From: Methanobacteriota archaeon
GTDB taxonomy: Archaea; Thermoplasmatota; Poseidoniia; Poseidoniales; Poseidoniaceae
DNA length: 64,000 nucleotides
Direction of reading: 5' to 3'
NCBI GenBank assembly: GCA_014240385.1
Contig: JAAZXA010000068.1
Location: 29,090 to 93,089 of the forward strand
The position numbers and the translations under genes are program-made. The notes beneath the pieces are model-generated. The model was not told the origin of the DNA. It did not search any database and saw only the letters and a program-made list of their open reading frames with translations. Positions 20,513-59,263 of this stretch are shown here, in pieces (position 1 is the first letter of the stretch; the number at the start of each line of letters is the position of its first letter).

Positions 20513-21271
20513 TCAAGCCTTCTTCTCAACCCAGTTAGCGAGTTCACGCATCATTTCGTTCCTAACGCTGTTCAGGGCGGCATTTACCACCCTGATTCCG
20601 GTTTTCAAACTCTTCCGGTGCGCCTCGCTGTTAAATGTGTTATCTGCAGCCTGTAGTTGAGTTTCAAGAACTCTTGATATTTGGGACTCCAAAGCCCCAT
20701 TGAGTGTTGAGTACCCTTGGGCTTCGTAAGTTGAGCCAAAGGGGTTTACTTCTTCTCGGTTTTCCCTAACACGAAATGTGGCTTCCTTACGATTTCTACT
20801 GATTTCTTGTTTGATCCAGTCTATATCGTTGTACCAAACATCTCGGTTTTGCCTGCCATTAATGAACAGGCGAGGGTACCAACGGTGGCCGTATTGTGAT
20901 ATTATTTCAACTTCACAATATTCTCGGTGGTTTTCGTTGTTTTTATCATAGCCCCACCTTTTCCATTCTTTTCGGAAATTGGGTAGGTGTCTGCTGACAC
21001 CCCCTCCAAAACCTGAGTCTTTGGTTGAATAGGATAGGCTGCTCAAATATCGTTCTTGATCCGTTCTAGCCACGCTAATTCTGGCGTAGTTAGAGCGGCC
21101 AAATGATTTTGGGTATTTGATTTCGTAAACATCCGGGTTCAGGTAAACACCATGCTTGTTGTAGGTATGGTATTTCGTATTCGTACAACCTTCCTCTTTC
21201 AAATTCTTTTCGAAAGGGCAGGTGTATGGGATTACTCCCTCAACCGGTAATTTCCATTGCATTTCTGCCAT
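20513..21271 (-). CDS. hypothetical protein, 252 aa
   Basis: motif start 21269-21271. Confidence 0.55.
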   Translation of the reverse strand: MAEMQWKLPVEGVIPYTCPFEKNLKEEGCTNTKYHTYNKHGVYLNPDVYEIKYPKSFGRSNYARISVARTDQERYLSSLSYSTKDSGFGGGVSRHLPNFRKEWKRWGYDKNNENHREYCEVEIISQYGHRWYPRLFINGRQNRDVWYNDIDWIKQEISRNRKEATFRVRENREEVNPFGSTYEAQGYSTLNGALESQISRVLETQLQAADNTFNSEAHRKSLKTGIRVVNAALNSVRNEMMRELANWVEKKA

Positions 21272-40778: not shown

Positions 40779-40802
40779 GTGGGGTATGGGAAGACTTTGT
40801 CT

Positions 40803-40860
40803 TCCTCATTAGCATAGGTCATAGGGGCCGTAGGCCCTGACCGTTTTAGTCATGTTTTGG
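40803..40860. repeat. two-hairpin element, copy 1 (..CCTCATTAGCATAGGTCATAGGGGCCGTAGGCCCTGACC + T/GT-rich tail)
   Basis: hairpin GGAAGAC-tttg-TCTTCC then GGGCC-GTA-GGCCC; 3 copies (40803, 41195, 42041). Confidence 0.65.
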
Positions 40861-41034: not shown

Positions 41035-41168
41035 TGGTGGACCGTGCTGGATTCGAACCAGCGGCCTCCTAAGACAGACAACTTCGACTCCTTCCGTCCT
41101 GCCCGGGACAGTTCGGTTTTTGTCTTATTCTGTTTCTTAGGCGCTCTTCCTGACTGAGCTAACGGCCC
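41035..41168 (-). tRNA. archaeal-type tRNA with ~57-nt anticodon-loop intron and encoded CCA; isotype unresolved
   Basis: revcomp reads GGGCCGT-TA-GCTC-AGTCAGGAA-GAGC-G-CCTAA[64 nt]TTAGG-AGGCC-GCTGG-TTCGAAT-CCAGC-ACGGTCC-A-CCA: all four stems canonical; loop+intron between CCTAA/TTAGG. Confidence 0.7.
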
Positions 41169-41194
41169 GTAACGGTGTTTTGAGGAAGTATTTC

Positions 41195-41250
41195 TTCCTC
41201 ATTGGTATAGGTCATAGGGGCCGTAGGCCCTGACCCATTTGTGTGTGGTT
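41195..41250. repeat. two-hairpin element, copy 2
   Basis: GAGGAAG-tattt-CTTCCTC then ATTGGTATAGGTCATAGGGGCCGTAGGCCCTGACC, GT-rich tail, then start-less TGTGAGCGGTTT (41261-41272). Confidence 0.65.
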
Positions 41251-42040: not shown

Positions 42041-42100
42041 TCCTGTCCTCATTAGATGAGGTCATAGGAGCCCTAGGCCTTGCCGTAGCAAGGTGGTGTG
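42041..42100. repeat. two-hairpin element, copy 3 (diverged: GGAGCCCTAGGCC)
   Basis: TCCTGTCCTCATTAGATGAGGTCATAGGAGCCCTAGGCCTTGCC + GTGTGTGG tail. Confidence 0.55.
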
Positions 42101-42101
42101 T

Positions 42102-42545
42102 GGTATAATTTCTTCGTGGTTTTAGGCCACAGGAGGTATATGAATAGGCCCTTTTACTCTCTTTCCTTTGGATCTAGAGGCCTCAAGCTGCTACTCTTGG
42201 CCTCTTTCTCTAGAAAGAGTGTATTTTGGGTATTTCTTCATGTTCTCCACTGTATTGTGCCACAGGGGGTATATGAATAGGCCACTTGCAGTCAATTTCA
42301 AGATCGCTGAAAGGGCATGATTAGCTTCTCATGCCTTCGCTTTCAATTATTGCTTCAATATGGGTATTTCTTCATGTTCTCCACTGTATTGTGCCACAGG
42401 GGGTATATGAATAGGCCATATTTCGGTAACATCTCCAGATCTCTCCTTCGAAAGCTACTCCTGGCATGGCCGTAGGCCAAACAGGGTGAAATATGGGTAT
42501 TTCTTCATGTTCTCCACTGTATTGTGCCACAGGTGTTATTTGGCA
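42102..42545. promoter_or_regulatory. periodic array: 4 direct ~56-bp units (period ~126-134 bp), each ending in GGTATATGAATAGGCC box, immediately upstream of TFB gene
   Basis: units at 42102-42150 (degenerate), 42228-42283, 42361-42416, 42495-42533 (last lost the TATATGAA box); unique ~75-bp segments between units. Confidence 0.7.
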
Positions 42546-42563
42546 AGGCCGTTTCCGTTAACC

Positions 42564-43694
42564 ATGGCGAGTAATGACGATACGGCCAATCAGATGGGGG
42601 CGACTGCTGATTTTTCGTCAATATCGTCTGTCCTTTGTCCTGCATTCGAACAGCCGCCTGGGTGTGCCGTCTCCCTTGCCAAGCAACAAAACTTTGATTC
42701 TTTGTCAGTCGACTCTATGACTGGGAGGGCGTATTGCGGATCATGCGGCGTGGAATTCGTTGTTGACCGTTATCAGGTTAGTCATGAGCAGAAAAAGAGT
42801 GATGATGGGATAGAAACCTACGGATCTGTTCTCTCCAAGTCTGGGAAGCAACGGAATAGGGAACAATCCTTTGACCGCCTGGGCTATCTTTGTATTAGCA
42901 AGTTGGACTTATCTCAAAGTGTGTTGGCACAAGCTACCCGCTACCTGTACGATATGATGGAAGGTGGAGCCGCTAAAGGAGGTCGGGGTTTTCCCCAACT
43001 CGAAGTGGTTGCGGCTTATGTGGCAGGTAGAATGCATAATCAATCCCTTACTCTCGAACATGTTGTTAATATCCATCGAGATTGGATTACAGAAGAAGGG
43101 GAGTTCAAATCGATAAAGGCGGCATCTATGAAATCAGTTAATCGATTGCTGCAGAATATGACTAGGGAAAACATTCTGCCTTACCCCCGCCCTTCTGCAG
43201 ATGATATCATTGGTTCTAATTCGTGGTGCTTGGCTAATCTAGATGAAGTCATTATTCAGAATGCTAAGGAGTTGTCTAATTGCGGAGTCCAAGGTTCCCC
43301 CGATTCTATTGCTGCAGCATCGGTGATGGTGGCTGCGAAGAATAAGCGTGTTGTGAAACCCGGAGATGACTTATCGCGGCCACGAACACAAATGGCCGGA
43401 GAGGAAGATGGGCAGCGTTTAACGCTCGAAGTGATTGCCAAATTGTTTCCTGGCACTACTGCTAGAACTGTAAGGCGAAGAATGAAAGAGATTAGGGATG
43501 TTTTGGAACTTAGGCTACCTCTAACACGAGAGCAAGTAGAGGTTCTTGAAAATCCTGATCCCCGCAAGGTGCGTGTCCGTAATACTGTTGAGGAAGTATT
43601 CAGTCAATTGGATTCGGAATTGGAAGGAAAGATACCATTGACTTCTAAGGATGTAGCAATTCTACGAAAATTGAAAGATTCAAACAAGAGGTAA
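42564..43694 (+). CDS. tfb: transcription initiation factor TFB/TFIIB homologue
   Basis: N-terminal Cys cluster (CPAFEQPPGC...CGSCGVEF), two cyclin-like repeats (LEVVAAYVAGRMHNQSLTLEHVVNI), C-terminal BRE-recognition-helix-like TTARTVRRRMKEI; ATG 42564 (track ORF starts earlier inside repeat array). Confidence 0.65.
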   Translation: MASNDDTANQMGATADFSSISSVLCPAFEQPPGCAVSLAKQQNFDSLSVDSMTGRAYCGSCGVEFVVDRYQVSHEQKKSDDGIETYGSVLSKSGKQRNREQSFDRLGYLCISKLDLSQSVLAQATRYLYDMMEGGAAKGGRGFPQLEVVAAYVAGRMHNQSLTLEHVVNIHRDWITEEGEFKSIKAASMKSVNRLLQNMTRENILPYPRPSADDIIGSNSWCLANLDEVIIQNAKELSNCGVQGSPDSIAAASVMVAAKNKRVVKPGDDLSRPRTQMAGEEDGQRLTLEVIAKLFPGTTARTVRRRMKEIRDVLELRLPLTREQVEVLENPDPRKVRVRNTVEEVFSQLDSELEGKIPLTSKDVAILRKLKDSNKR

Positions 43695-44135
43695 TGTGAT
43701 TTCCCTTTTGGTTTTCTTGGAATCTTTTCTGTATTGCAACAGAACATAATGGATGTCTCTGCGATTGTAGCTTCCGTTTTCATCTGGTTCTGCGGACCAA
43801 CAGGCATACCTTAGTGAGCGGTTTTCTTCCTGCATTAGTTCCAACATGGTTTCAGGGCCAACGCTGTACACTTCCTTGACTTCTCTGAGAGATAATTGCT
43901 CATCTGGAACTAATCGCCAAAGTGTTCGTCTGTATTCTCCTGTTCCATCCTTTGTTCTTTCAACACCTGCTGGATCAAACCTTTCTGGGTATGATGAAAG
44001 GATCCCAGCAATTACTGATTTCCGTTCTTTACCCATTTTGTCTAGTATTCGGTCAAAAGGGAGAATTTCATCTTTGGACTCATGGAAGATTTTCTCAATC
44101 TTTGGGACAAGGCGGTTTTTTGCCTTCCTTGCCAT
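43680..44135 (-). CDS. hypothetical protein, 151 aa (possible wH regulator)
   Basis: ATG 44133-44135 preceded by GAGGGGGATGAGG SD-like purine tract; no ACCGCTC motif. Confidence 0.45.
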   Translation of the reverse strand: MARKAKNRLVPKIEKIFHESKDEILPFDRILDKMGKERKSVIAGILSSYPERFDPAGVERTKDGTGEYRRTLWRLVPDEQLSLREVKEVYSVGPETMLELMQEENRSLRYACWSAEPDENGSYNRRDIHYVLLQYRKDSKKTKREITLPLV

Positions 44136-44428
44136 CAGGCCTCATCCCCCTCGTCCTTCCTAAGTTGTGTGAGTTCTTGCACCAGCCGCCAGACTATGTC
44201 GTCCATTGTCTCGCCCCTGTTGCCGAGGCTATTCAAGATTTCATGCGTTCTTTGCTTAACATTGATGTGTTTCAACTTTGAGCCGTCTGCCGCAATGTTC
44301 CCCATGAGACCAACTGTGTGTATCTGTCGTATAAGCGACTCGGAGGGATTGGGATGGGATGTGAAAGGCTGTGATACTTGGGCAAGAGGGGAGAGAGTTT
44401 ATGCACCGTGCGCTGAAAGGCGCCCATA

Positions 44429-44635
44429 ATGAAAGCAGAAGATCCTCTAGTGCAAACCTTACTCAAGACCCTGATGGAGTTAGAAAAGGTGGATGAAAAA
44501 GACTTGAGACACATGATTGAAGTTGCTGGACAACTATGTACCCAACTCGAGCGGCCGGAGAGTATTGCGGCCTTGATGTTTCAGGTGATGGATGTTTCCA
44601 AAGCGGTTGATTCCTCGATTACTGGTTATGCCTGA
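44429..44635 (+). CDS. hypothetical protein, 68 aa
   Basis: track ORF; weak RBS; stop 34 nt before GT gene start. Confidence 0.3.
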   Translation: MKAEDPLVQTLLKTLMELEKVDEKDLRHMIEVAGQLCTQLERPESIAALMFQVMDVSKAVDSSITGYA

Positions 44636-44642
44636 ATCCTTC

Positions 44643-44655
44643 ATACGACTGAACA
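44643..44655 (+). promoter_or_regulatory. TATA-like box CATACGACTGAACA ending exactly 14 nt before ATG 44670
   Basis: member of ATAYGRCTGAACC-N14-ATG family (5 copies). Confidence 0.5.
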
Positions 44656-44669
44656 CCTTCGGCTCTCAC

Positions 44670-47111
44670 ATGAGAGTAGGTTTTCTCCTGTTAGGCAACG
44701 CCCCGTTTTACTTGACTGGGTATGGTACGCAATTGAAAATTCTAGGCGACAAATTAATTGAAGAGGGTTACCCTGTAGGTCATGTTGTTGACTTTGGATA
44801 TGCTGGACAACATATGGAATGGGAAGGGCGAACTGTTTACCCCCATGATAAGTTGCCAGGAACTCTGACTGCTGATACAATGAAATCGCACATCCTGTCT
44901 TTTCAACATAAACACGGTTTAGATCAAGTCGTTGTTTGGTCTTTGGGTGATACATGGAAATTGAGTAAGTTGAATCAAGCCATCAAGCACCCGTATTGGA
45001 TTTGCATGACTCCTGTTGATTCGGATAGGATGGATGGCGGTTCAATTACCGCTCACAATAATTCATGGTTGCAAGCCGCAATATCGAAACATGGTGTTGA
45101 AATTATGAGGGCTGCTGGATTAACTGGCATCAATTACCTCCCCCACATGGTCGGAGATTCCTTTGTGCCAATAAATCAAGAGTATGCTAGAGCCGCATGT
45201 GGTTTGCCTCAAGATCCCTTTGTCGTTGGTTTCTTTGGAGACATGAGTATGCGTAAATGCCCTCATGAGAATCTAGAGGCTTTTGCAATTTTCAAGCAGT
45301 CCGTACCGAACTCCCTCCTCTTCATCAAGACTAGTAACCATGTCCAACAGGTTCAATTCCATGAATTAATTCATAGGCTGGGTTTGCAGAATTCGGTTAT
45401 CACAATTCCCCCCTATGATTCCCTTCTAGGGCTAACGGATTATGAGATGGCACGAGCCCTCTCCAGTTTGGATGTGCTTCTTCATGTGAGTTCCCAAGAG
45501 GGTTTTGGAATCATACAAGTTGAAGCCCAAATGTGCGGAGTACCTGTTATCAACATGGATTTTGGTTCCCAAAGAGAGCTTCAAGGAAATCCCGAACTGT
45601 TGGTTCCTGTGGAACAGATGAATCGTGTTGATGGTGGAATGAAGGTTCCATTTGCGGCACCTGAGAAGATAGCGGAGAAGTTGATGTCTGTTTACAACCA
45701 TCTCAATAAAGTCAGCAGTCTTTCCGATGGTTTTATCGTCAAAAGGGCAATCGAACATGCAGAAACATACAGGGTTGATAAGGTGTGGGACGAGTATTAC
45801 AAGCCATTCCTCAAAGGGATGATTGGATCTATTGATGCGGTTTCTAGAGTTGTTATTCCCCCCCGTTCATTGAAGAAGGTGGGCATTGTTTCTACATTCG
45901 ATACTGAATGTGGAATTGCTACTTACACCCACATGCTTGCTACAAAATTGGTAGAGCAGGGAATGGAAGTTGTTGTCTTTTCGGAAACAGACGGTGAGTT
46001 TGAAGAAGTTCTTGAACATGAAGGTATTCGGCACCATCGATGTTGGAATCGAATGAATCCAAACACCAAATTATTCCGTGAACTTGTTGAGAGGGAGGGT
46101 TGCGATATTATCCACTTCCAGCACGAATGGCAGTTGTTCAAGAGTACGGGGTTGATTGAGGAACTTCGAGATGTACAAGTTAAGAAAGCCATCACATATC
46201 ATACCCCTCAGCCCGACCAAATGCGTAAATTGCTAAGGATTACTGATTCAACCGTTGATGCCCACATAACGCACTGGCCGGAGACTACCCAGTTGTTGCC
46301 AATGGTTTGTGAACATGGGATGTTGAATGGTGTCCAAACCATCAAACATGGTGTCCTTGAGCATTCACTTGTCCAGGACAAGTCTGTTCTGGGCATTCCT
46401 GAAAAGGTTCCAGTATTCTTCACCTTTGGTTTTGCTTCTTCAAGCAAGGGGTTGGATTATTTCATTGATGCGGCCATCCAAGCTTCTAAGAATCCAAATT
46501 GCCGGTACTTCGAAGTTGTAATTGCAATGTCCTATCATCCCGATTGGGATATGAGCGACTTGGCGAAGGAGATTAGAGCGAAGGCTGGTTCTGTTGATTT
46601 CATTACGCTTATTGAAGGATGGATGGATGATGATTCACTTGATGTTCATGCGGCTGCTAGTGACTACCTTGTTTTCCCCTACCGTTGGTACCAACAGATC
46701 CATAGTGCGTCTGGCGCAGTTAGACGCGTTTTGGGTCATGGTAAGCCCGTCTTGGTTACAGATGAGGGAAGGCTTCGAGATTTGACTGGAGGCGTACACG
46801 GTTGGAAGTTCGGCCAATACGATGTAGATGGCTTCGCTGCTGCTATTGTTGATGCGTCTTCATTACTTGGCAGTCCTCGGTATCAAAAGATGGCCCAAGC
46901 GGTCAAGGATTACTCTTCTTTGACCTCGTGGGATAATATTGCTGCGCAACACATTCAACTTTACGATAAGGTCTGTGGCTTGTGGTCGGTGGTTCCAGAG
47001 GGTATGTCACGAGCCCAAAGAGTTGAGATTGATTTACCATTCCCAGAATTACTTGATTCGGATGTTCAAGTGGATCGTTGGCATTTGCATAGGGGTGACG
47101 AAGAAGAATGA
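44670..47111 (+). CDS. two-domain glycosyltransferase (GT-B / GT4-like in both halves)
   Basis: EGFGIIQVEAQMCGVPVI (E-x7-E GT4 signature) in first half, SASGAVRRVLGHGKPVLVTDEG in second; 813 aa from ATG 44670. Confidence 0.6.
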   Translation: MRVGFLLLGNAPFYLTGYGTQLKILGDKLIEEGYPVGHVVDFGYAGQHMEWEGRTVYPHDKLPGTLTADTMKSHILSFQHKHGLDQVVVWSLGDTWKLSKLNQAIKHPYWICMTPVDSDRMDGGSITAHNNSWLQAAISKHGVEIMRAAGLTGINYLPHMVGDSFVPINQEYARAACGLPQDPFVVGFFGDMSMRKCPHENLEAFAIFKQSVPNSLLFIKTSNHVQQVQFHELIHRLGLQNSVITIPPYDSLLGLTDYEMARALSSLDVLLHVSSQEGFGIIQVEAQMCGVPVINMDFGSQRELQGNPELLVPVEQMNRVDGGMKVPFAAPEKIAEKLMSVYNHLNKVSSLSDGFIVKRAIEHAETYRVDKVWDEYYKPFLKGMIGSIDAVSRVVIPPRSLKKVGIVSTFDTECGIATYTHMLATKLVEQGMEVVVFSETDGEFEEVLEHEGIRHHRCWNRMNPNTKLFRELVEREGCDIIHFQHEWQLFKSTGLIEELRDVQVKKAITYHTPQPDQMRKLLRITDSTVDAHITHWPETTQLLPMVCEHGMLNGVQTIKHGVLEHSLVQDKSVLGIPEKVPVFFTFGFASSSKGLDYFIDAAIQASKNPNCRYFEVVIAMSYHPDWDMSDLAKEIRAKAGSVDFITLIEGWMDDDSLDVHAAASDYLVFPYRWYQQIHSASGAVRRVLGHGKPVLVTDEGRLRDLTGGVHGWKFGQYDVDGFAAAIVDASSLLGSPRYQKMAQAVKDYSSLTSWDNIAAQHIQLYDKVCGLWSVVPEGMSRAQRVEIDLPFPELLDSDVQVDRWHLHRGDEEE

Positions 47112-47335
47112 CTGAATGGAAGAAGGAAGATGTTGGCAAGGAAACTCCCGTTTTTATCGAGGGAGTGAAGGTGATTGATATGATTGTTGAAGTAATGTTG
47201 CCAGATGGGCAGGTTATTATTGGGCCTCAATTGGCGTGTGCTCATATTTTTGCTCGTTATTCAATGGTTCCTGCAATGGAGATGGTTAGCGAAGCTACAC
47301 AGAAAACAATTGAAAGCATGGAGGGGGATGCATGA
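47108..47335 (+). CDS. hypothetical protein, 75 aa
   Basis: ATG overlaps upstream stop (ATGA); purine-rich upstream. Confidence 0.35.
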   Translation: MTEWKKEDVGKETPVFIEGVKVIDMIVEVMLPDGQVIIGPQLACAHIFARYSMVPAMEMVSEATQKTIESMEGDA

Positions 47336-47418
47336 CGCCAGGAGTGGTATACAAGTGTGTGAAATGTGGTGTTTGGAGTATGGGTACTCACAAATGCGTT
47401 CAAGAGGAGGAAGAGTAG

Positions 47419-48177
47419 ATGTTATCCGTAATCTGTTGTACTGCCCGTCAAGAGGCAGGTATCAAAGAGATGTTGAAGAGTTTGGAAAAGCAGACGCATA
47501 CTGATTTCGAGTTTGTTTTGGTTGATAAGGCATGGGAATCTCGCAACGGGGCTTTCATCCTGATGCTGGATAATTCGTCGGTTAATTGCAAATACATCAA
47601 AGACGAATCCAAACATGGATTTGTTTCGATTGCCTCTGCTCGGAACCTAGCAGTTGAGTCCTCCGATGGAGATTGGATCGTTTCAGTTGATGATAGGACG
47701 CTGTTCTACCCCGATACCTTGGAACTACATGCGCAAGCATTTGAGGAAGGTTGGGATGGTATGGCGGGTTTTTCTGATTTCCACCACGAAGGCGTTTTTG
47801 CTGAGAAAGAACCAGACAAAGAGGATGAGAGGGGAGATAACCCCCAGTCAGGACATGGGAAATATGCATCAAGTAATTTCTTTGGCTATCACATGGGGTT
47901 CTCGAAGAAGGCTTGGGCTAAGGTCCGGGGTTTCGATGAGAACTATGATGGTGTTTACGGGTGGGAAGATTGTGATTTTGGTTTGAGGCTCGGTAATGCG
48001 GGAGCGGTTGTGAAATTGGGAACCCAATGTCGTGTGCTGCAGATTCGAGACGCTGCACATGGCGAGGTTTTCCAGAAGGATGATGCGCCACATGCAATTA
48101 CTGGAGGTCACATCAGATGGCGTAATGACCGAATGTATAGGCTCACATTAATGAACAGGGGCAGGTGCAGGTGGTAA
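47419..48177 (+). CDS. glycosyltransferase family 2-like protein
   Basis: LSVICCTARQEAGIKEMLKSLEKQTHTDFEFVLVD pattern; GAGGAGGA SD 47404-47411; 252 aa. Confidence 0.5.
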   Translation: MLSVICCTARQEAGIKEMLKSLEKQTHTDFEFVLVDKAWESRNGAFILMLDNSSVNCKYIKDESKHGFVSIASARNLAVESSDGDWIVSVDDRTLFYPDTLELHAQAFEEGWDGMAGFSDFHHEGVFAEKEPDKEDERGDNPQSGHGKYASSNFFGYHMGFSKKAWAKVRGFDENYDGVYGWEDCDFGLRLGNAGAVVKLGTQCRVLQIRDAAHGEVFQKDDAPHAITGGHIRWRNDRMYRLTLMNRGRCRW

Positions 48178-48178
48178 T

Positions 48179-48313
48179 ATGAAAACAAATGGACGCAGAT
48201 ATCGCAGATTAATGGCGGCTTGGAAGAAGAATAGAAGAGGGCGTTCGAAGCCTGTAGCTTCTAAGCGTCAAGGCCGTCCGGTAAGCAAGAAGAGAACCCC
48301 TCGGAGGAGATGA
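48179..48313 (+). CDS. extremely basic 44-aa peptide (not in ORF track)
   Basis: MKTNGRRYRRLMAAWKKNRRGRSKPVASKRQGRPVSKKRTPRRR; AGGTGG upstream; start overlaps upstream stop (TAATATG), stop overlaps next start. Confidence 0.35.
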   Translation: MKTNGRRYRRLMAAWKKNRRGRSKPVASKRQGRPVSKKRTPRRR

Positions 48314-48314
48314 A

Positions 48315-48950
48315 ATGGTTGATGGTCTTCTGCAGCATGATGAATATTCTGATGTTTGTCCAATCTGCAAGGAAATTGTCACCGAAGAAGAATGGCCTGT
48401 GCCGATTTCGAGAATGGAAGAACGGACAGGGCAGAAGTTTCCCCCTTGCGTAGTATGTGGTTCTGATGAAGACATCCATTACAATTACCTGACTATGCCT
48501 CAGAAGGATGGAAGAGGATTCAATCACAATCTTTTGCTGTGGTGCGAATCCTGCGGAAGTGGTACGCAACATGATGGGTTTGATGTATTGACAGGTAAGC
48601 CCAAGATCGCCCTGCGATTACCGAATGAGTTTTCCAATGATTCGATGGAGAAGGCGAAGGAACGGCTTGAAGCGGCTTTGGCCGCAGGTGAACAGGATGA
48701 AGAACTCGCCCAGGAGATCCAAGCAATGTTAGTCATGCGTGGTTTTTTCCGAGTCCACCATTACCCTTGCTTAGATGATGGTTGGGATGCGATGGGGCAT
48801 GGAGTCCGACCACTAGAAAGAAACGAGATTATGAAGAGGTTCTATGAATGGTCTAATGATGAGGCCATAGGTGTGGCCGAACTGTCTGACAATCCTTTGA
48901 CGAAGAATAAATCTCCTAGGACTCGAAAGCGTGGGAAGCGTTGGTGGTAA
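48315..48950 (+). CDS. Zn-finger protein, 211 aa
   Basis: GGAGGAG SD 48303-48309; CPICKEI...CVVCGSD...CESCGSG. Confidence 0.55.
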   Translation: MVDGLLQHDEYSDVCPICKEIVTEEEWPVPISRMEERTGQKFPPCVVCGSDEDIHYNYLTMPQKDGRGFNHNLLLWCESCGSGTQHDGFDVLTGKPKIALRLPNEFSNDSMEKAKERLEAALAAGEQDEELAQEIQAMLVMRGFFRVHHYPCLDDGWDAMGHGVRPLERNEIMKRFYEWSNDEAIGVAELSDNPLTKNKSPRTRKRGKRWW

Positions 48951-48960
48951 CGAACTGATT

Positions 48961-48973
48961 ATATGACTGAACC
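48961..48973 (+). promoter_or_regulatory. TATA-like box ATATGACTGAACC, 14 nt before ATG 48988
   Basis: ATAYGRCTGAACC-N14-ATG family. Confidence 0.5.
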
Positions 48974-48987
48974 ACTTGAACCAAATC

Positions 48988-49146
48988 ATGCGAGACCCAA
49001 CCTACAAAATCGCCCTAGTCTTTGAAGATGCAGAAGGAAACAATGTTACTCTGGCAACAGATGTACCTGAGAACCAAGTCGGATTGGCACATGCTTCAAT
49101 GTTGAAGCTTGCTGCTGGACTCAAAGGCAAGAGCGACGACGAGTGA
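48988..49146 (+). CDS. hypothetical protein, 52 aa (not in ORF track)
   Basis: MRDPTYKIALVFEDAEGNNVTLATDVPENQVGLAHASMLKLAAGLKGKSDDE; start defined by N14 box. Confidence 0.35.
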   Translation: MRDPTYKIALVFEDAEGNNVTLATDVPENQVGLAHASMLKLAAGLKGKSDDE

Positions 49147-49189
49147 TTAAAAGCGTAAATGCTAAGGGGCAGAGCCTCTTCGCCTGTTC

Positions 49190-49729
49190 ATGCTCAGCCA
49201 ACCGCATTCTGCTGTAAATCACATGAATTACAGTATTCTTGGTTCACATACTGTTCAAGATGCGGCCAATAATGCGAAGAATAATTTCTCTCCTTCGCAG
49301 AGATCTAGACATGCTCGAACCGCATATCAGAATAATCATCAGAATCTAATGCAACCGGCTATTGCTAACAATCCTCATCTTGCAGATGTTTTGAGAGGTT
49401 CTCAAGATCCAATGGGCGCCTCTTGGAATACTGGCGCTTTTCTCATCGCCGCAGGCGTGGGTGGGTTATTGTCGGTGGTGTCGTCGTCGAAGGACTTGAA
49501 GAGTTTTGGGAAATCGAAGAAGACACAAAGGAGAAACATTACCATTGGTACTATGATTGCTGCTTGTGGGCTGCTTGCAGTTGGATATTCGAAGAATTCT
49601 GAATTAATTCCCGCAGGTATCGGACTTCTTTCTGGCAATGTGGTTGGCAACAACTTGTGGTCTATCGGCTCCCGCGATTCTGGATTCGACTTTACGCCTT
49701 CGAAGTCCCTATTTGAGTTGGACTACTAG
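49190..49729 (+). CDS. Gly-rich membrane protein, 179 aa (alternative start 49223)
   Basis: track ORF; AACCGC 19 nt upstream of ATG 49223; TM segments. Confidence 0.45.
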   Translation: MLSQPHSAVNHMNYSILGSHTVQDAANNAKNNFSPSQRSRHARTAYQNNHQNLMQPAIANNPHLADVLRGSQDPMGASWNTGAFLIAAGVGGLLSVVSSSKDLKSFGKSKKTQRRNITIGTMIAACGLLAVGYSKNSELIPAGIGLLSGNVVGNNLWSIGSRDSGFDFTPSKSLFELDY

Positions 49730-49742
49730 ATGGGAATGGTTC

Positions 49743-49755
49743 AAACGGCTGAACC
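49743..49755 (+). promoter_or_regulatory. TATA-like box CAAACGGCTGAACC, 14 nt before ATG 49770
   Basis: ATAYGRCTGAACC-N14-ATG family. Confidence 0.5.
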
Positions 49756-49769
49756 GGCTGGCATTGTCT

Positions 49770-50195
49770 ATGTCGGCAGAAGATGACTCGCACACATTAC
49801 GCATCTTTGGGTTACTTTTCGTAAACTCATTTCTGATTGGTGCGGCAGTTGGGATCCACCAGCAGGGGCTTTGGTTCCCTGAAGAAAGTAATTGGGCTAA
49901 GATTGCAGGCCTCTATATGATGAGTGCTACATTTATTCAAATGGTTGCATTTATGATTTACAAATTGTTCTTCCAGGAGCGACTTGAAGATCAATCGTAT
50001 ATTCAAGGGCTTCATTCCTCTATGCGTCGTAGTATGAAGAAAATTAATGCGGAGACTCAACAATTCCAAGTGGGTCTCGAATTGGAAGCTAAGAGAGCCC
50101 AACAGCAGAAGCAGATGCAATTGCTACGAAATAAGGTCATGGAAGATGATGATGAGTCTGGCCTTAGCGAGAAGATGATGATTGAACTTCGGTGA
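49770..50195 (+). CDS. membrane + coiled-coil protein, 141 aa
   Basis: MSAEDDSHTLRIFGLLFVNSFLIGAAVG...; start fixed by N14 box (track ORF 49638 over-extended). Confidence 0.5.
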   Translation: MSAEDDSHTLRIFGLLFVNSFLIGAAVGIHQQGLWFPEESNWAKIAGLYMMSATFIQMVAFMIYKLFFQERLEDQSYIQGLHSSMRRSMKKINAETQQFQVGLELEAKRAQQQKQMQLLRNKVMEDDDESGLSEKMMIELR

Positions 50196-50204
50196 GGCTA
50201 CCTT

Positions 50205-50414
50205 ATGCGAGGGCTTCTTTTTCCAAGTGAATCTGCTCATCAAGCAGAGATAATGGCTGAGGCTTTTGCCAATAAATCGATATGGGACATGCGATGGTAC
50301 AAATTCAAACTTTGGTTCTACACTAGCGTAACTGCTTTCATCTTCATGTTCTTTACATCCCTTATTGAATGGTTCTTTGATTTCAGTCTTTTCAAGTGGA
50401 TGTTCGGGCTGTAG
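50205..50414 (+). CDS. small membrane protein, 69 aa
   Basis: GGTGAGG upstream; hydrophobic C-terminal half. Confidence 0.4.
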   Translation: MRGLLFPSESAHQAEIMAEAFANKSIWDMRWYKFKLWFYTSVTAFIFMFFTSLIEWFFDFSLFKWMFGL

Positions 50415-50419
50415 GTTTC

Positions 50420-50432
50420 ATACGGCTGAACC
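50420..50432 (+). promoter_or_regulatory. TATA-like box CATACGGCTGAACC, 14 nt before ATG 50447
   Basis: ATAYGRCTGAACC-N14-ATG family. Confidence 0.5.
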
Positions 50433-50446
50433 GTCTCACATTGTCC

Positions 50447-51211
50447 ATGACGCTAAGCGGATTCATTGCAATGCCTCGAAAACCGGGGAAAACAAAGATT
50501 GGGCAGATCCTCAAGAATATTGGATTCAAGGATAAGGGAGCAGCAGGAAATATGTGGGTCTTTGGTAAGACTCGGTTCCGTGTAGATGTGGTTGATTTTA
50601 GGGATGATTTGAGAGATCATGACGCTGAATGGGTTGAAGAAGTTGGATGGGATGATAATTGGGCCGTCCGTATTGCTGTCAATCATTCTAACAGAACAGA
50701 TGAAAATTACATCTTGTGGCATTCGATTCTAGTCATAGCCGCTGAGTGCTTAGGCGTTAGAGAAATTTGGTTAGATGGCGGCACAGGCATTCCACAGCAA
50801 CCGTACACACTTCGAGAGTTGTTTCCTGAATTGAAATCTGATGAAGGAGAAGACTTGATTGAAGAATCCGAAGCCGCCCCTGTTCTAGTCGACAAGGCAG
50901 AAGTCTTGGAGCTTCCAGATATTGAAACACCTGCTGAGCCTGTTTTGGTTCCATCTGAGCCTGAGCCTGAGCCTGAGCCTGAACCTGTGCCTGAGCCTCA
51001 AACAGAATCGTCCGAAGAGGATTACGATTCCTGGGGATGGGATGAGGATGAGGATGAGGATGAGGATGAGGATGAGGATGAGGACGATTCATGGAATGAG
51101 GATGAGGATGAGGATGAGGATGAGGATGAGGACGAGGATGAATCCGAAGAAGAGAATGAATCCGAAGAGAATGAATCCGAAGAAGGTGTTGATGTAATCA
51201 CTGAATGGTGA
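50447..51211 (+). CDS. acidic tandem-repeat protein, 254 aa
   Basis: (PE)n then (DE)n low-complexity runs encoded by GAGCCT and GAGGAT hexanucleotide repeats at 50953-51180. Confidence 0.55.
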   Translation: MTLSGFIAMPRKPGKTKIGQILKNIGFKDKGAAGNMWVFGKTRFRVDVVDFRDDLRDHDAEWVEEVGWDDNWAVRIAVNHSNRTDENYILWHSILVIAAECLGVREIWLDGGTGIPQQPYTLRELFPELKSDEGEDLIEESEAAPVLVDKAEVLELPDIETPAEPVLVPSEPEPEPEPEPVPEPQTESSEEDYDSWGWDEDEDEDEDEDEDEDDSWNEDEDEDEDEDEDEDESEEENESEENESEEGVDVITEW

Positions 51212-51234
51212 GTTCTTTGGTTGAAGGGGGTGCA

Positions 51235-51948
51235 ATGGCGTGGGGAGGCCTCCTTTACCTCAAGCACCTTTGGGATTCTTGGAAAAGTCACCGAATAGGA
51301 ATATATGGCCTGTGGGCGTGTGGTAAGACCACCCTGAATCGTTATTTGAATACCTCTGGGGATCTCGAAGAAGATACTGCCCGTATGACTAGCACCGCTC
51401 ACCCCTATGATAAGAAGAAGAAGCAGTATGTTCCACCAAATGCAACCCGCAAGAGAATTCATGTTTTGTCCGAAGCAAATCAGTCATTCCGTAGAACCAT
51501 TCTCTCGTCTGATATTGGAGGCCAGTCCGAATATTTCAATCTCTGGGTTCGAGATTTGGTGTTGCGTGATGTTGAAGTAATCATCTATCTGGTTGATTCA
51601 AGGGATGATCCAGATGGGCTTCAAGAGGCAACATTTCGAGACTTTACGAGAATTATTGCCGAGAGAGATTTCCGTTTTACTGAACGAAAATTGAGGAAAA
51701 AGGCCAGAAATTATCAGCCGAAGGTGGTAGCCCTTGTTGCCAATAAATCGGACCTTTGGCTCAATCCAGACGAACGGGCGTATTACGAGGGGTCTGGCAT
51801 TGGCAGGCATCCAATTTTTGATGCTTACAGGCCGCACTTGGTACGGCTACAGAGAGCCGGTATTCCTACTTTGAAGCGAAGTATTTCAGCCCTCCATGGG
51901 TATGATGTGGAGCGATTAATATGGGATTGCTTGAAGGCGAAGTCGTGA
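51235..51948 (+). CDS. Arf-like small GTPase (Ras superfamily)
   Basis: GLWACGKTTL (P-loop G1), DIGGQ (G3, Arf/Galpha-type), IIYLVDSRDD, NKSDL (G4) with ~50-aa insert between G3 and G4; GAAGGGGGTG SD before ATG 51235. Confidence 0.6.
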   Translation: MAWGGLLYLKHLWDSWKSHRIGIYGLWACGKTTLNRYLNTSGDLEEDTARMTSTAHPYDKKKKQYVPPNATRKRIHVLSEANQSFRRTILSSDIGGQSEYFNLWVRDLVLRDVEVIIYLVDSRDDPDGLQEATFRDFTRIIAERDFRFTERKLRKKARNYQPKVVALVANKSDLWLNPDERAYYEGSGIGRHPIFDAYRPHLVRLQRAGIPTLKRSISALHGYDVERLIWDCLKAKS

Positions 51949-51960
51949 TATGACTAAACC
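51948..51960 (+). promoter_or_regulatory. TATA-like box TGATATGACTAAACC, 14 nt before ATG 51975
   Basis: ATAYGRCTGAACC-N14-ATG family. Confidence 0.45.
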
Positions 51961-51974
51961 ACTTGGCAACTACC

Positions 51975-52748
51975 ATGTCGATGTTTGGCGATGAGGCTTC
52001 GAGTGGTCTGGAGGATTCTCATTTTATGTCGAATGTGAGGTTCACCTTCGATGACAATCCGGATCCATACAAACGAAGAAAGATAAATATGAAAAACGCG
52101 TATGGCGTTTTGAAACCAAAGCGTAGATGGAGGATTGGTTCCCCCGTCCATAACAATGCAGGACAATGTTGTGTTACTGGTATTGATTTGAGGGCTTTGG
52201 GTGCTGAAGCTTACAACAGGGCTTTACTTGACCCGCATACCCTGCAGCCTGTGGATGATGGTCGAACATTGATGACTGAGTTCTTTCTAGATCATTTGAC
52301 GGGCAAACCAGTTCAGTTTGCGGCTCAATCTGGAGTTACTACTGGTTTGCCGCTTCGTTCGTCTTATTGTCCAGGATTATTGCAGATTTATTGGTTGTAT
52401 ACTCAATGGAAATATGAAACCGATATGGAAGAACAGGGTAGGAATAGTTCATTCCTTAGAAGTAGAGGTATTGAATTAAAGCCTTTGAGAAGAAAGGATG
52501 TCAAAAAGCGCAATAGACCCTTGTTAGTCGATGAAATTGAGCCTTTTTTTGCTAAGGTCAAAATGCATGAAGGGCAGGGCATAACCATTGTTGAGTATTC
52601 TAATCCTGATGAAAATTCTAACTTCTTCGGAGAGATTGATTTAGTACACATAACATTGGATTTGCGGAAGATGCGAAGCGAGGAATTAAATAGGGAAAAG
52701 ACAAAGGGGGGCAACCCCTCCGATAATCAAAGCGAGGTTATACCATGA
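51975..52748 (+). CDS. hypothetical protein, 257 aa
   Basis: start set by N14 box (track uses TTG 51963). Confidence 0.5.
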   Translation: MSMFGDEASSGLEDSHFMSNVRFTFDDNPDPYKRRKINMKNAYGVLKPKRRWRIGSPVHNNAGQCCVTGIDLRALGAEAYNRALLDPHTLQPVDDGRTLMTEFFLDHLTGKPVQFAAQSGVTTGLPLRSSYCPGLLQIYWLYTQWKYETDMEEQGRNSSFLRSRGIELKPLRRKDVKKRNRPLLVDEIEPFFAKVKMHEGQGITIVEYSNPDENSNFFGEIDLVHITLDLRKMRSEELNREKTKGGNPSDNQSEVIP

Positions 52749-53449
52749 GCTTCTACAATCCAAACCCCACACCACAAAATACGAACGCTAATGTCGGTAA
52801 TCCGTTCTCTAAGGCACCTCCAGTGCCAACTGGAGCACCAATGGGTATGCAGGGTATGCAGCCAATGGGACAACAAAACCCCTATGGTATGTATCAACCA
52901 ACGCCACAGGCTTTGTGGGCTCAACTTGGTTATCAAACCGAGCCCTCTTTGGTTGAACTCATTCGAGATTTAGTTGTACAGAATTCTTTGGATTCTGCGC
53001 GATTCGCCGTTGAGGGGGGTTTCTTCGCTGATATTGCAATTATGGAGCAACTGATTGATTATCGCTTGAAGGAGTTCTTCACCAATTTCCGATTAGAAAT
53101 ACACCAAGACGCTACGCAAGAAGGTGCTATGTTCATCAAACCTGCTCCAGAGCAGCCTACGGATGAAGGAAAGAGATTGGCAACCCTCACCCAAAGTGAT
53201 TTGACTGCGAAGGTTGAGGAAATCAAGGGTGCAATTCGAGATAATCTATTGCAGACTGCGGATCAGAAAATTGAGTTGCATATCCAGGCGTCTGCTTTGG
53301 CTACGCAACAAGGATTCATGGGCTCTCTTCTAGCAGAGGACGCTAATGGGCAAAGAGGCGGCATTCTTTCTGCTACTGCAGGAGTTGCAGGAGGCATTCT
53401 AAGATCTGCTGCAGGTCTTCCACCTGCGCCAAAACCACCGGGGGCTTGA
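52745..53449 (+). CDS. protein with P/Q/M-rich N-terminus, 234 aa
   Basis: ATG overlaps upstream stop (ATGA); GMQGMQPMGQQNPYGMYQ low complexity. Confidence 0.5.
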   Translation: MSFYNPNPTPQNTNANVGNPFSKAPPVPTGAPMGMQGMQPMGQQNPYGMYQPTPQALWAQLGYQTEPSLVELIRDLVVQNSLDSARFAVEGGFFADIAIMEQLIDYRLKEFFTNFRLEIHQDATQEGAMFIKPAPEQPTDEGKRLATLTQSDLTAKVEEIKGAIRDNLLQTADQKIELHIQASALATQQGFMGSLLAEDANGQRGGILSATAGVAGGILRSAAGLPPAPKPPGA

Positions 53450-53453
53450 TTAA

Positions 53454-53753
53454 ATGAGTGTTGAAAGAGTTGATGAATTGCTAACAGAGATGGCGTCCGG
53501 TTCGAAGTCAAGAAAGAAAGAAATAGATGTTTATTCGATTATGGATGATTGGTTTCAACCTAAATCAGAATTGATGAAGCATGTGATTATTATTCAAATG
53601 ATTGCTTGTATTATCGTATCGATGTTCCTTTTGATTACTGTCGGAGATTCTCTGAGTAGTGAGGGCTTGCTCTTTGCAGTCATGGCTTTCATGTTGTTTG
53701 TTGGCGGATCCTTCCAATTTTACAATCGAATGACGGGTGGAGGGAGATACTGA
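53454..53753 (+). CDS. membrane protein, 99 aa
   Basis: two TM helices; tight coupling to upstream gene. Confidence 0.45.
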   Translation: MSVERVDELLTEMASGSKSRKKEIDVYSIMDDWFQPKSELMKHVIIIQMIACIIVSMFLLITVGDSLSSEGLLFAVMAFMLFVGGSFQFYNRMTGGGRY

Positions 53754-54017
53754 TGCCTTCGGCTAACCATCCTGCATTGTTGATTCCCAAGGTTGCACCA
53801 GTAGCACCTATGAGCCTTTCACTATACTACCTCTACAAACGACCATCAGATTGGAAGGTTGCAGTATCTACGCTGATATTTTCATCGGCCTTGTTGGTTG
53901 CAGGTCTAAGGTGAGGTTTTGATACATTGTACCCAAGTTTGCCCTGAATGTGGCAAAGTTGCATGTGTTGGGCATATGCGATGTCATTCATGCGGGTATT
54001 TTCTTCGCGTTGAAGAT

Positions 54018-59156: not shown

Positions 59157-59263
59157 AGTTGTTAGTGTGGTGTCCGACTTCGCAGAAGTCATAGGGTTAG
59201 TATGGTGTGAGGACCGTTGTTCGCTCCATCGGACGGACCAAGCGAAGTGTTTTAGTCGGATAA

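Follow-up and report, generated by a model that had tools for sequence, protein, structure and literature searches.

A start-phased upstream element as a probable virus-specific promoter class in an undescribed clade of tailed archaeal viruses

Introduction

What is a short sequence doing when it recurs, at a fixed distance, in front of the start codons of a virus, and which step of gene expression would it set? The question is raised by the window analysed here, a 64-kb stretch of DNA from an uncultured tailed virus of ~128 kb, which has a marine archaeon as its host and belongs to an undescribed clade. Searches of GTDB genomes, IMG/VR and GenBank phage records returned no relatives; 63 related loci were recovered from metagenomes, and the synteny of a gene module is kept across ~60 loci. 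An archaeal host is supported by the presence of a TFB-like gene and of a tRNA with a 57-nt intron. We argue below that the element is best read as a virus-specific class of archaeal-type promoter, and that it probably starts leaderless transcripts, with a start site placed by the geometry of the sites.

Motif copies and gene units in the window

An earlier note on this DNA had described five plus-strand genes in which CTGAAC[CA], preceded by CATACGR or TATATGA, ends exactly 14 nt before the ATG. Its coordinates and ends were exact for all five, but the wording of the box called for three corrections, since the site of 49770 reads CAAACGG instead of CATACGR, while that of 51975 reads CTAAACC instead of CTGAAC[CA] and is preceded by GATATGA instead of TATATGA. 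The consensus of the five copies in the window is T-Y-A-W-A-C/T-G-R-C-T-R-A-A-C-M, ending exactly 14 nt 5′ of the ATG. The first copy, TTCATACGACTGAACA (44640-44655; 13-mer ATACGACTGAACA at 44643-44655; 22.4 bits), precedes ATG 44670 of a double GT4 glycosyltransferase gene (44670-47111), and the second, ATTATATGACTGAACC (48958-48973; 13-mer ATATGACTGAACC at 48961-48973; 17.7 bits), precedes ATG 48988 of a 52-aa gene (48988-49146). Copy 3, TTCAAACGGCTGAACC (49740-49755; 13-mer AAACGGCTGAACC at 49743-49755), has the highest score, 24.5 bits, and stands before ATG 49770 of a 141-aa membrane-protein gene (49770-50195). It is followed by TTCATACGGCTGAACC (50417-50432; 13-mer ATACGGCTGAACC at 50420-50432; 20.0 bits) before ATG 50447 of a 254-aa gene (50447-51211), and by GTGATATGACTAAACC (51945-51960; 13-mer ATATGACTAAACC at 51948-51960; 14.9 bits), which overlaps the stop codon of the upstream GTPase gene and precedes ATG 51975 of a 257-aa gene (51975-52748).

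Two minus-strand copies had been missed. Copy 6, CTTATACGACAGATAC (44335-44320; 19.2 bits), sits in the divergent intergenic region 44306-44428, 14 nt 5′ of ATG 44305 of a 56-aa gene (44135-44305) whose product, judged by eye, looks like a ribbon-helix-helix (RHH) regulator; a 151-aa gene (43680-44135) comes after it. Copy 7, ATTATCCGACTAAAAC (59264-59249; 13.8 bits), is followed by no ORF, and its predicted +1 falls near 59234, 78 nt upstream of a tRNA-Lys gene (59156-59081). The six strong copies of the window (14.9-24.5 bits) each have an ATG at offset 0. The pattern CTRAACM-N14-ATG was observed 8 times in the window versus 0.63 expected, five of these 8 being the reported sites, and none of 100 dinucleotide-preserving shuffles contained at least 8 matches.

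The conserved gene module (44670-53914, plus strand) is split into five units by the five putative plus-strand promoters: GT4 (44670), 47108, GT2 (47419), 48179 and 48315 in the first, 48988 and 49190 in the second, 49770 and 50205 in the third, 50447 and an Arf-like GTPase gene (51235) in the fourth, and 51975, 52745, 53454 and 53753 in the last. Within the module, the motif was found only at unit-first genes, and the internal genes have Shine-Dalgarno (SD) sites. Matches of at least 5 nt to the SD sequence preceded motif genes in 1/20, 1/14, 4/30, 0/30 and 0/17 cases, as against 18/20, 14/23, 19/21, 4/4 and 10/15 for internal genes, so that the two signals have a complementary distribution; the SD sites previously reported at 47.4 kb, 48.3 kb and 55-64 kb are indeed present. 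The start codons had also been placed correctly (44670, 48988, 49770, 50447 and 51975), as the orthologues of related viruses begin there, with the N-termini MRVGF, MRDPT, MSAEDD, MTLSGF and MSMFG. Longer ORFs, from 44592, 49638, 50396 and 51963, cross the motif.

Conservation of the element across the clade

When the motif was compared within the clade, at protein identities of 43-88%, the conserved element extended over ~20-22 bp, from -30 to -9. Counted from the start codon, a TTYAWACG core spans -30 to -23; it is made up of a TATA-like TTYAWA (-30 to -25) and the beginning of an extension, CGRCWGARMC...TGG (-24 to -9). Conservation continues beyond the positions of the scoring matrix, with T-11 at 0.85 and G-10 at 0.72. 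The consensus CTGAAC[CA], present in the window, proved too narrow for the clade, where the heptamer varies (CTGAACC, CAAGAAC, CTGAGAC and TTGAAAC). Nor could we retain the proposed link, through a shared AACC, between the box and the heptamer of the left block, since AACC is not a constant part of the box in relatives and the left-block heptamer changes from lineage to lineage (ACCGCTC, ATTGAAC or ACTGACC).

With a match of at least 10 bits required, the motif was present before 16/23 orthologues of GT4, 19/19 of g48988, 34/43 of g49770, 37/45 of g50447, 43/60 of the 51975 family and 3/4 of the RHH-like gene. Before the other genes it was found in 0/25 (GT2), 0/28 (g48315), 1/44 (g50205), 0/53 (GTPase) and 2/47 (g53454) cases. 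The same loci served first to train the position matrix and then to be scored by it, so that its 236 matches versus ~30 in shuffles are inflated. The sequence of the spacer diverges, but its length, the distance to the start codon, stays at 13-15 nt across the clade (13 nt in 33, 14 nt in 59 and 15 nt in 7 of 99 distinct phased sites). At a spacing of 15, the base preceding the ATG is almost always an A after a C, which keeps the CA dinucleotide in register.

A signal for transcription or for translation

In three related lineages (L005, L012 and L015), the predicted +1 falls exactly on G1 of a tRNA-Lys (motif 15-21 bits), and in L012 it also falls on nucleotide 1 of a tRNA-Arg (12.5 bits); about 0.002 such coincidences would be expected by chance. 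The motif thus stands at the same distance from the predicted +1 in tRNA and in protein-coding genes, and because it is phased to nucleotide 1 of the tRNAs, it would set the start of transcription and not that of translation. This phasing is the strongest evidence that we can offer for the promoter reading. The tRNA-Lys copy of the window predicts a 78-nt leader and not a leaderless tRNA, an arrangement shared by the close relative L009 (motif 13.4 bits). Among protein-coding genes, several GT4 orthologues use GTG at the phased position, and in one sub-clade of g49770 orthologues the ATG lies 5-9 nt downstream of the predicted +1 while the motif has not moved, both of which one would expect if it is the start site, and not the start codon, that the motif fixes.

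These observations weigh heavily on the idea that the motif acts in RNA, which we consider highly improbable. The intergenic spacers are only 27-41 nt long and the genes co-directional, so that read-through RNA would include the motif; a fixed spacing of 13-15 nt would also suit an RNA-RNA interaction, and SD-like runs stand in the spacer of some relatives. However, untranslated tRNA genes have the same motif at the same distance, the start codons of the g49770 sub-clade drift away from a fixed motif, and copy 6 (44320-44335) heads a divergent unit with no co-directional gene upstream of it, so that transcription must begin there. Moreover, a search for a consensus structure returned 0 pairs, and the motif is, by inspection, not complementary to the universal 16S 3′ end GAUCACCUCCU.

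The earlier note had proposed an archaeal-type promoter with its box at the TATA position and a transcript beginning at the AUG. This proposal gains support from the position of the core, which matches the canonical archaeal box-A distance (~26 nt from the start in leaderless promoters; PMC6028130, PMC3491384), and from the retention of motif and spacing before the same orthologues; the SD pattern, the phasing to tRNA nucleotide 1 and the divergent intergenic copy further favour the leaderless start. TBP would bind the TATA-like core, T(-30)T(-29)Y-A-W-A(-25), followed by the conserved extension C(-24)G(-23)R-C-W-G-A-R-M-C(-15) and then by C(-13) and T(-11)G(-10)G(-9), and RNA polymerase would start at a purine after a pyrimidine, 23-24 bp downstream of the invariant G(-23). 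In the window this purine is predicted to be the A of the start codon, in which case the first gene of each unit would be made as a leaderless mRNA and the downstream genes would be translated via their SD sites. Six units of the window would be driven in this manner, five on the plus strand and the divergent one on the minus strand, as would the tRNA genes of relatives.

Candidate readers of the promoter extension

Near-invariant C-24 and G-23, together with a frequent C at -28, make the core a poor TATA box, and no purine-rich BRE is evident upstream of it. Adjoining the module is a divergent TFB/TFIIB-like gene (42564-43694, plus strand; 376 aa), whose Pfam TFIIB repeat match of 21.4 bits lies under the 23.6-bit cutoff, a threshold that remote relatives of the protein pass. 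Its AlphaFold model (mean pLDDT 66.5) has as best Foldseek matches in the PDB human TFIIB (E 5.6e-8) and Pyrococcus woesei TFB (1ais_B, E 2.6e-6). The gene keeps this place next to the module in the rest of the clade; it was found in 11 related loci, two of which (L005 and L011) are duplicates of each other. We tentatively suggest, though we would sooner expect otherwise, that this protein reads the promoter extension as a virus-encoded specificity factor. The TFB-like gene itself has the motif upstream neither in the window nor in any of 9 orthologues and has a separate, different TATA-like box, TTATTTGG, at -28 to -21; its being under a different promoter would fit a cascade. Bacteriophage T4 provides a functional analogy, as its late promoters are read via the phage-encoded specificity factor gp55: in both cases genes that are regulated together share one short consensus, and a homologue of an initiation factor is encoded by the virus. 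T4 relies on a bacterial sigma system, however, whereas here the system would be that of TBP and TFB, and the TFB-like protein is only a candidate reader.

Alternatively, the motif could be an ordinary basal promoter for host TBP and TFB in which the extension CGRCWGARMC...TGG serves as an operator, bound by a small viral regulator that switches the gene class on or off together. The RHH-like protein (44135-44305) or the 151-aa protein (43680-44135), and not the TFB-like protein, would then be the reader. The transcription factors best known from archaeal viruses are RHH-type regulators acting at promoters (PMC5569661), a motif copy precedes the RHH-like gene itself, as is typical of autoregulation, and some copies are partly palindromic, such as ACGG-CTGAA-CCGT at 50422-50434. 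Still, the palindrome is not general, the would-be pairing positions having A/C (-16) and N (-14) in the clade consensus. A dimeric operator would also not be expected to be asymmetric or to run without a break into the TATA-like core, as the conserved block does, and a sequence pattern is the sole basis of the RHH assignment. We regard an operator as rather unlikely.

The polymerase reading the motif need not be that of the host, given that the 130.6-kb contig of one relative (L072) has an 881-aa gene with the Pfam domain RNA_pol_Rpb1_5, convergent with the end of its early block. A promoter dedicated to an RNA polymerase of the virus itself, acting alone or together with the viral TFB-like factor, would also agree with the G/C at -24 and -23, unusual in a TBP site, and with a virus family that encodes its own TFB-like factor. 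We nevertheless find it improbable: the case is a single domain match on a single contig, neither the 64-kb window nor any of the ~21-kb related loci yielded a polymerase gene (ORFs of at least 450 aa; NADFDGD motif search), and the geometry, with a box at -30 to -23 and a pyrimidine-purine start, is the very one used by the cellular machinery of archaea. Surveys also report archaeal viruses as being without RNA polymerase (PMC5569661).

Comparison with known promoters

Leaderless promoters with a box A or TATA box characterize the GeneMarkS-2 'group D' genomes, which include Halobacteria and Thermoplasmata (PMC6028130, PMC2151090). The viral element resembles them in its box ~26 nt from the start codon of the operon-first gene, in its pyrimidine-purine start and in first genes without an SD site followed by internal genes with one. 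However, its box is not a plain AT-rich octamer, as the ACG at -25 to -23 is near-invariant, its conservation runs 14 bp farther downstream, to -9, with no visible BRE, and its consensus is confined to a single gene class in a single virus clade. In Nanoarchaeum equitans, as far as the account in PMC3491384 (citing Randau et al. 2008) goes, leaderless tRNA genes have a box A, TTTAAA, 26 nt upstream and start at tRNA nucleotide 1, which is comparable to the predicted starts on tRNA-Lys or tRNA-Arg in L005, L012 and L015, except that the tRNA genes here are viral, that only some lineages have this arrangement and that a 78-nt leader is predicted in the window.

Among archaeal viruses, the promoters of SIRV1 and SIRV2 contain GTC, a virus-specific motif immediately 3′ of the TATA box that has been proposed as a cis-regulatory signal (Kessler et al. 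2004, as summarized in PMC5569661). Judged by that summary, in both systems an element conserved throughout the virus adjoins the TATA box on its downstream side, but the block described here is ~14 bp instead of 3 bp and marks only a subset of units. Unlike the rudiviruses, which are without a TFB-like factor, the present virus encodes one. The intergenic repeats of halovirus HF2 are AT-rich, 29-58 bp long and promoter-bearing, as tested with reporters (PMC8707807). They likewise place short repeated promoter sequences before successive units of a tailed archaeal virus, whereas the motif described here, known from its sequence, is conserved throughout a deep clade, in phase with the start codon.

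We also observed an SD-like GGAGG between motif and ATG at some sites, for example before a 76-81-aa minus-strand gene in L005, L012, L014 and L015. Such a sequence would serve no purpose if the transcript were strictly leaderless, except where read-through RNA is an additional template for translation of the gene.

Phased copies of the motif in the window

The five plus-strand motifs that the earlier note had placed exactly 14 nt before an ATG were all found when we read positions 44400-52400. The 13-mers are ATACGACTGAACA at 44643-44655 (ATG at 44670, the GT4 gene), ATATGACTGAACC at 48961-48973 (ATG at 48988), AAACGGCTGAACC at 49743-49755 (ATG at 49770), ATACGGCTGAACC at 50420-50432 (ATG at 50447) and ATATGACTAAACC at 51948-51960 (ATG at 51975). 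The motif as originally worded stands except at two sites, where it is off by a base or two: CAAACGG at the 49770 site, and GATATGA followed by CTAAACC at the 51975 site. The pattern CTRAACM-N14-ATG occurs eight times in the window against 0.63 expected, a count reached in no shuffle. With a position matrix we identified two more copies. The sixth is CTTATACGACAGATAC (44335-44320, minus strand), 14 nt ahead of the ATG at 44305, and the seventh, at 59264-59249, is upstream of tRNA-Lys.

Conservation across related loci

[quoted passage not shown] We then scored the motif at a threshold of at least 10 bits before the orthologues in all related metagenome loci. It was present for GT4 in 16 of 23 loci, for g48988 (window genes are named by their start) in all 19, for g49770 in 34 of 43, for g50447 in 37 of 45, for the 51975 family in 43 of 60 and for the RHH-like gene (44135-44305, minus strand) in three of four. 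The corresponding fractions were 0/25 for GT2 (47419), 0/28 for g48315, 1/44 for g50205, 0/53 for the GTPase gene (51235), 2/47 for g53454 and 0/9 for the TFB-like gene (42564-43694, plus strand). Thus the orthologues preceded by the motif in relatives are the same ones as in the window, and elsewhere the motif is absent at this threshold. Raw matrix matches numbered 236 against about 30 in shuffles, which overstates significance because the matrix was trained on the same loci; the orthologue-specific pattern is independent of this training bias.

The consensus of 99 distinct phased sites reads T-30 T-29 Y A-27 W A-25 C-24 G-23 R C-21 W G-19 A R M C-15 N C-13 N T-11 G-10 G-9. G-23 is invariant among them, and T-11 and G-10 are conserved despite lying outside the scoring matrix. 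The motif ends 13 nt before the ATG in 33 of these sites, 14 nt in 59 and 15 nt in seven. At a spacing of 15 the ATG is preceded by CA, so that the CA step stays in register with the motif.

A probable transcription-start signal rather than a translation signal

An element so close to start codons might be a ribosome-binding signal, a reading ruled out by its occurrence at the same distance before tRNA genes. ARAGORN identified tRNA-Lys and tRNA-Arg genes in several relatives. In L005, L012 and L015, a motif of 15-21 bits lies such that the position equivalent to the A of ATG is nucleotide 1 of tRNA-Lys, and nucleotide 1 of the L012 tRNA-Arg likewise falls at the motif-predicted +1 (sites at 1421-1452 in L005, 1660-1691 and 2704-2735 in L012, and 1702-1733 in L015). 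With 13 tRNA genes examined and about 1.5e-4 matrix matches per position, only about 0.002 such coincidences would be expected. Since the motif sets +1 on the first tRNA nucleotide, these viral tRNAs appear to be made without a 5′ leader. In L005, the end of the TFB-like gene, with its last codons and its stop codon, lies within the stretch covered by the tRNA motif.

Other observations agree with the tRNA phasing. The minus-strand copy at 44320-44335 is at the head of a divergent unit, where transcription must therefore start. A Shine-Dalgarno match of at least 5 nt was found at 6 of 111 motif-preceded gene starts, and at 65 of 83 starts of GT2, g48315, g50205, g52745 and g53454. In one sub-clade the g49770 start codon has moved 5-9 nt downstream; the position of the motif is unchanged. 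The GT4 orthologues of L005 (at about 2572), L015, L028, L032, L035, L044 and L054 start with GTG at the phased position, which would give them GUG starts without a leader. For 23 diverse sites, RNAalifold returned 0 conserved pairs. Taken together, the tRNA phasing, the divergent copy, the Shine-Dalgarno pattern, the GTG and drifted starts and the lack of conserved pairing indicate that the motif fixes the start of the RNA.

Further identities were considered and set aside. By inspection, the motif has no complementarity to the 16S 3′ end (GAUCACCUCCU), which excludes Shine-Dalgarno-type pairing; its likeness to the sense strand of helix 45 we take as coincidence. A palindromic operator or RNA hairpin could be drawn from ACGG-CTGAA-CCGT, an arrangement present in some copies only and with 0 pairs in RNAalifold. 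Bacterial sigma-70 promoters were fewer than expected (12 found against 18.7), none of them at the motif. A T7-like promoter (TAATACGACTCACTATAG) was also weighed: the matching stretch ATACGACT is shared only by the copy at 44643, the other window copies reading ATATGACT, AAACGGCT or ATACGGCT at that position and the clade consensus being WACGRCWG. The large ORFs of the window, which covers only half of the ~128-kb genome, gave no polymerase domain; in the related loci we found neither an ORF of at least 450 aa beyond GT4 and structural proteins nor an NADFDGD motif. The 951-aa ORF, tried as a polymerase, had no match in PDB or Pfam, and its PHROG matches are virion and baseplate proteins. At 58757-58743 on the minus strand, TAATACGACTGAC equals 12 of the first 13 T7 promoter bases and is followed by a degenerate second motif copy, TTCATAGCGACAATTAAC, with a GGTGA Shine-Dalgarno site between the latter and the ATG at 58703; this T7 likeness is taken as coincidence too.

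Comparison with archaeal leaderless promoters

The TTYAWACG box lies at -30 to -23, counted from the first base of the start codon and from tRNA nucleotide 1. In leaderless archaeal genes, box A is about 26 nt away from the start (PMC6028130), and the box of the leaderless tRNAs of N. equitans lies 26 nt upstream (PMC3491384); the TTYAWACG core thus shares its position with box A. Occupancy in the 99 distinct sites is 0.98 for T-29, 0.98 for A-27, 1.0 for W-26 and 0.94 for A-25. Upstream, from -38 to -31, there are only weak preferences (C-37 0.58, G-36 0.64), and a BRE signal there is inseparable from coding conservation because conserved upstream genes reach into the region with their 3′ ends and stop codons. 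Most sites have C or T immediately before the phased ATG, and the predicted +1 is the A of ATG, the G of GTG starts or, after a T, G1 of the tRNAs, so that initiation would occur at a pyrimidine-purine step. Internal genes have Shine-Dalgarno sites but the first gene does not, as expected of leaderless promoters. The earlier note's interpretation of the box as an archaeal-type promoter giving leaderless transcripts is supported by these features, at the level of sequence.

We propose that TBP binds the TTYAWACG core and that RNA starts at the pyrimidine-purine step 23-24 bp past G-23. The motif differs from an ordinary archaeal leaderless promoter in its conserved block from -24 to -9, hereafter the extension, and in having no clear BRE. 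When TFB is bound with TBP on DNA, its N-terminal cyclin repeat covers the DNA immediately past the TATA box, and the transcription bubble opens near -10. A factor of altered specificity could read the bases from -24 to -9. Among viral promoters, the closest parallels are those of SIRV1/2, with a GTC element downstream of the TATA box (PMC5569661), and those of halovirus HF2, which are carried on intergenic repeats (PMC8707807). Judged from its sequence, the motif is a promoter of a familiar archaeal type in a new form peculiar to this clade.

In the accepted view, archaeal viruses use host TBP, TFB and RNA polymerase together with small repressors. To our knowledge, nearly all that is known of their transcription comes from a small number of cultured viruses of hyperthermophiles and halophiles. 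[quoted passage not shown] What makes this class interesting is its long extension past the TATA box, the viral TFB-like gene next to the module and the apparently leaderless tRNAs. In practice, the motif corrects gene starts (automatic callers ran several genes through the promoter), marks operon boundaries and offers a search handle for more members of the clade.

A TFB-like gene as candidate reader

The ORF at 42564-43694 scored 21.4 bits on the Pfam TFIIB repeat, below the 23.6-bit cutoff; its remote relatives scored 23.8-29.5 bits on Pfam TFIIB, above threshold. A structural model of moderate quality (pLDDT 66.5) had as its top Foldseek matches the TFIIB chains of Pol II pre-initiation complexes (E 5.6e-8), followed by P. 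woesei TFB (1ais_B, E 2.6e-6), with cyclins lower-ranked. On this model, the protein appears to contain the two cyclin-fold repeats of the TFIIB core. In the N-terminal part, where a TFB would have its zinc ribbon and B-reader/B-linker, four cysteines are invariant (C25, C34, C58 and C61), but their spacing is not the canonical CxxC...CxxC. Residues 47-92 contain beta strands, in a region for which the model has low confidence. The family is rare, with 16 clusters at E <= 1e-3 among 1.84 billion representatives.

The gene lies beside the module in all loci that extend far enough. In the window and L008 its own TATA-like box is TTATTTGG, spanning -28 to -21; L031, L057 and L058 have TTTCATAA instead, at about -30. 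We regard the TFB-like protein as a candidate reader of the promoter extension. Since its gene adjoins the module and is expressed from a different TATA-like box, a regulatory cascade is plausible but unproven. If the protein does read the extension, the result would be a sigma-factor-like switch built from archaeal/eukaryotic initiation machinery. Co-variation of the TFB-like protein with the motif variant would fit co-divergence but is inseparable from shared phylogeny, and we gave it no weight. The RHH-like protein, whose gene is itself under the motif, may read the extension instead or as well. Judged by eye, this 56-aa product (44135-44305, minus strand) has a ribbon-helix-helix-like pattern; a 151-aa protein is encoded at 43680-44135 on the same strand, its start overlapping the stop codon of the 56-aa gene upstream. 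Both genes are kept in relatives and together form the divergent unit behind the sixth motif copy.

Just upstream of the TFB-like gene, at 42190-42551, a unit of about 133 bp occurs in three tandem copies. Copies 1 and 2 contain GTATATGAATAGGCCACTTG, a close variant of the promoter motif, and copy 3, which extends to the start codon of the gene, contains GTTATTTGGCAAGGCC. The array may be a promoter array or an origin.

The start-abutting heptamer of the left block

The left block is more unusual than the phased promoter. Within window positions 1-41646, CCGCTC stands immediately ahead of 87 minus-strand ATGs, usually as ACCGCTC and 0-3 nt downstream of the preceding stop codon. A further ten copies precede AC, so that the motif is ACCGCTC followed by A. 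On the plus strand CCGCTC occurs only five times, once before an ATG. Nothing is conserved around -27 upstream of the left-block copies. The earlier note had linked this heptamer to the promoter box through a common AACC, a link that we do not uphold, as the AACC of the box is not conserved across relatives. A single genome (contig Ga0209709_10000034, with loci L028 and L074) has CAAAGMC or CAATAAC as box heptamer and ACTGACC as left-block heptamer.

The start-abutting heptamer varies by lineage. The window and L070 share ACCGCTC, L072 and L075 have ATTGAAC (with TGA as the upstream stop), and L074 has ACTGACC. These differences suggest a virus-encoded reader, or a minimal promoter or cleavage site co-evolving with one. 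Hybrid sites with both motif types occur in L070 (16558 and 20961) and L074 (16232). At 20806-21050 on the minus strand of L072 (ERZ27251036 k141_947462, 130.6 kb) lie the last 81 codons, all that falls within the locus, of an 881-aa gene with the Pfam domain RNA_pol_Rpb1_5, convergent with the end of the left block. The virus may thus encode a subunit of a multisubunit RNA polymerase, which one would not expect of an archaeal virus.

A speculative scheme, to which we give rather little credence, is that this undescribed clade of marine archaeal viruses of ~125-130 kb runs its own two-part initiation programme, with a promoter class read by the TFB-like protein and a separate early-block signal. 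The TFB-like factor would read the extension in the manner of a phage sigma factor, switching on the glycosyltransferase/membrane-protein/GTPase module as leaderless mRNAs, and would also start the viral tRNAs at nucleotide 1. The early block of about 40 kb would use the lineage-variable heptamer, always followed by A and abutting the start codon, as the minimal promoter of a virus-encoded polymerase. Alternatively, the heptamer could be a cleavage site turning polycistronic RNA into leaderless mRNAs.

The virus and its relatives

The gene content of the window, its tRNAs, including an intron-bearing tRNA-Gln, and the TFB-like protein point to a tailed virus of an archaeon. In favour of an archaeal host are the TFB/TFIIB-like gene, the intron-bearing tRNA-Gln and the count of sigma-70-like promoters (12 against 18.7 expected). 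About 90 small minus-strand genes occupy 1-41.6 kb, including genes for Dam, N6 and N4 methylases and PAPS-reductase-like proteins. They are followed by the plus-strand module at 42.5-53.9 kb and by a minus-strand block at 54-64 kb with classical Shine-Dalgarno sites, two tRNAs, a serine recombinase and the 951-aa protein with PHROG matches to virion and baseplate proteins.

Proteins identical to those of the window are encoded on a 128,049-bp contig. No relatives were found in GenBank phage records (DNA or protein), IMG/VR or GTDB genomes. A metagenome scan recovered 63 marine loci (Tara, Red Sea-type MDS*/MDT* records and JGI), several on contigs of 118-129 kb; synteny of the entire plus-strand module holds throughout this set. 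Homologues of the 51975 protein are at 41-88% identity. Magroviruses, which also carry an annotated TFB, are a different group of marine archaeal viruses with 31.5% G+C and genomes of 90-100 kb (PMC10768690).

The tRNA-Gln(CUG) gene at 41035-41168 on the minus strand, the third tRNA of the window, has an encoded CCA end and a 57-nt intron in the anticodon arm at the non-canonical position 32/33 (ARAGORN). In the fold, a 4-bp helix is flanked by a 2-nt bulge, unlike a textbook bulge-helix-bulge. A 48-nt repeat at 40800-40847, 41193-41240 and 42043-42090 contains a GC hairpin, GGGGCCGTAGGCCC, and after it, on the minus strand, CCTATGACCTATACCAATGAGG. Either a minus-strand gene or tRNA-Gln lies downstream of each copy, and the repeat may combine a terminator with a promoter of a second class. 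In the module, the C-terminal third of the 50447 product (50930-51190, plus strand) is a low-complexity acidic tract with PEPEPE, DEDEDE and ESEEN repeats. The gene at 51235-51948 (plus strand) encodes an Arf-family-like small GTPase (Pfam Arf, 24.9 bits) kept in all relatives, and its true start is probably the ATG at 51235 behind GGGGGTG, not 51205.
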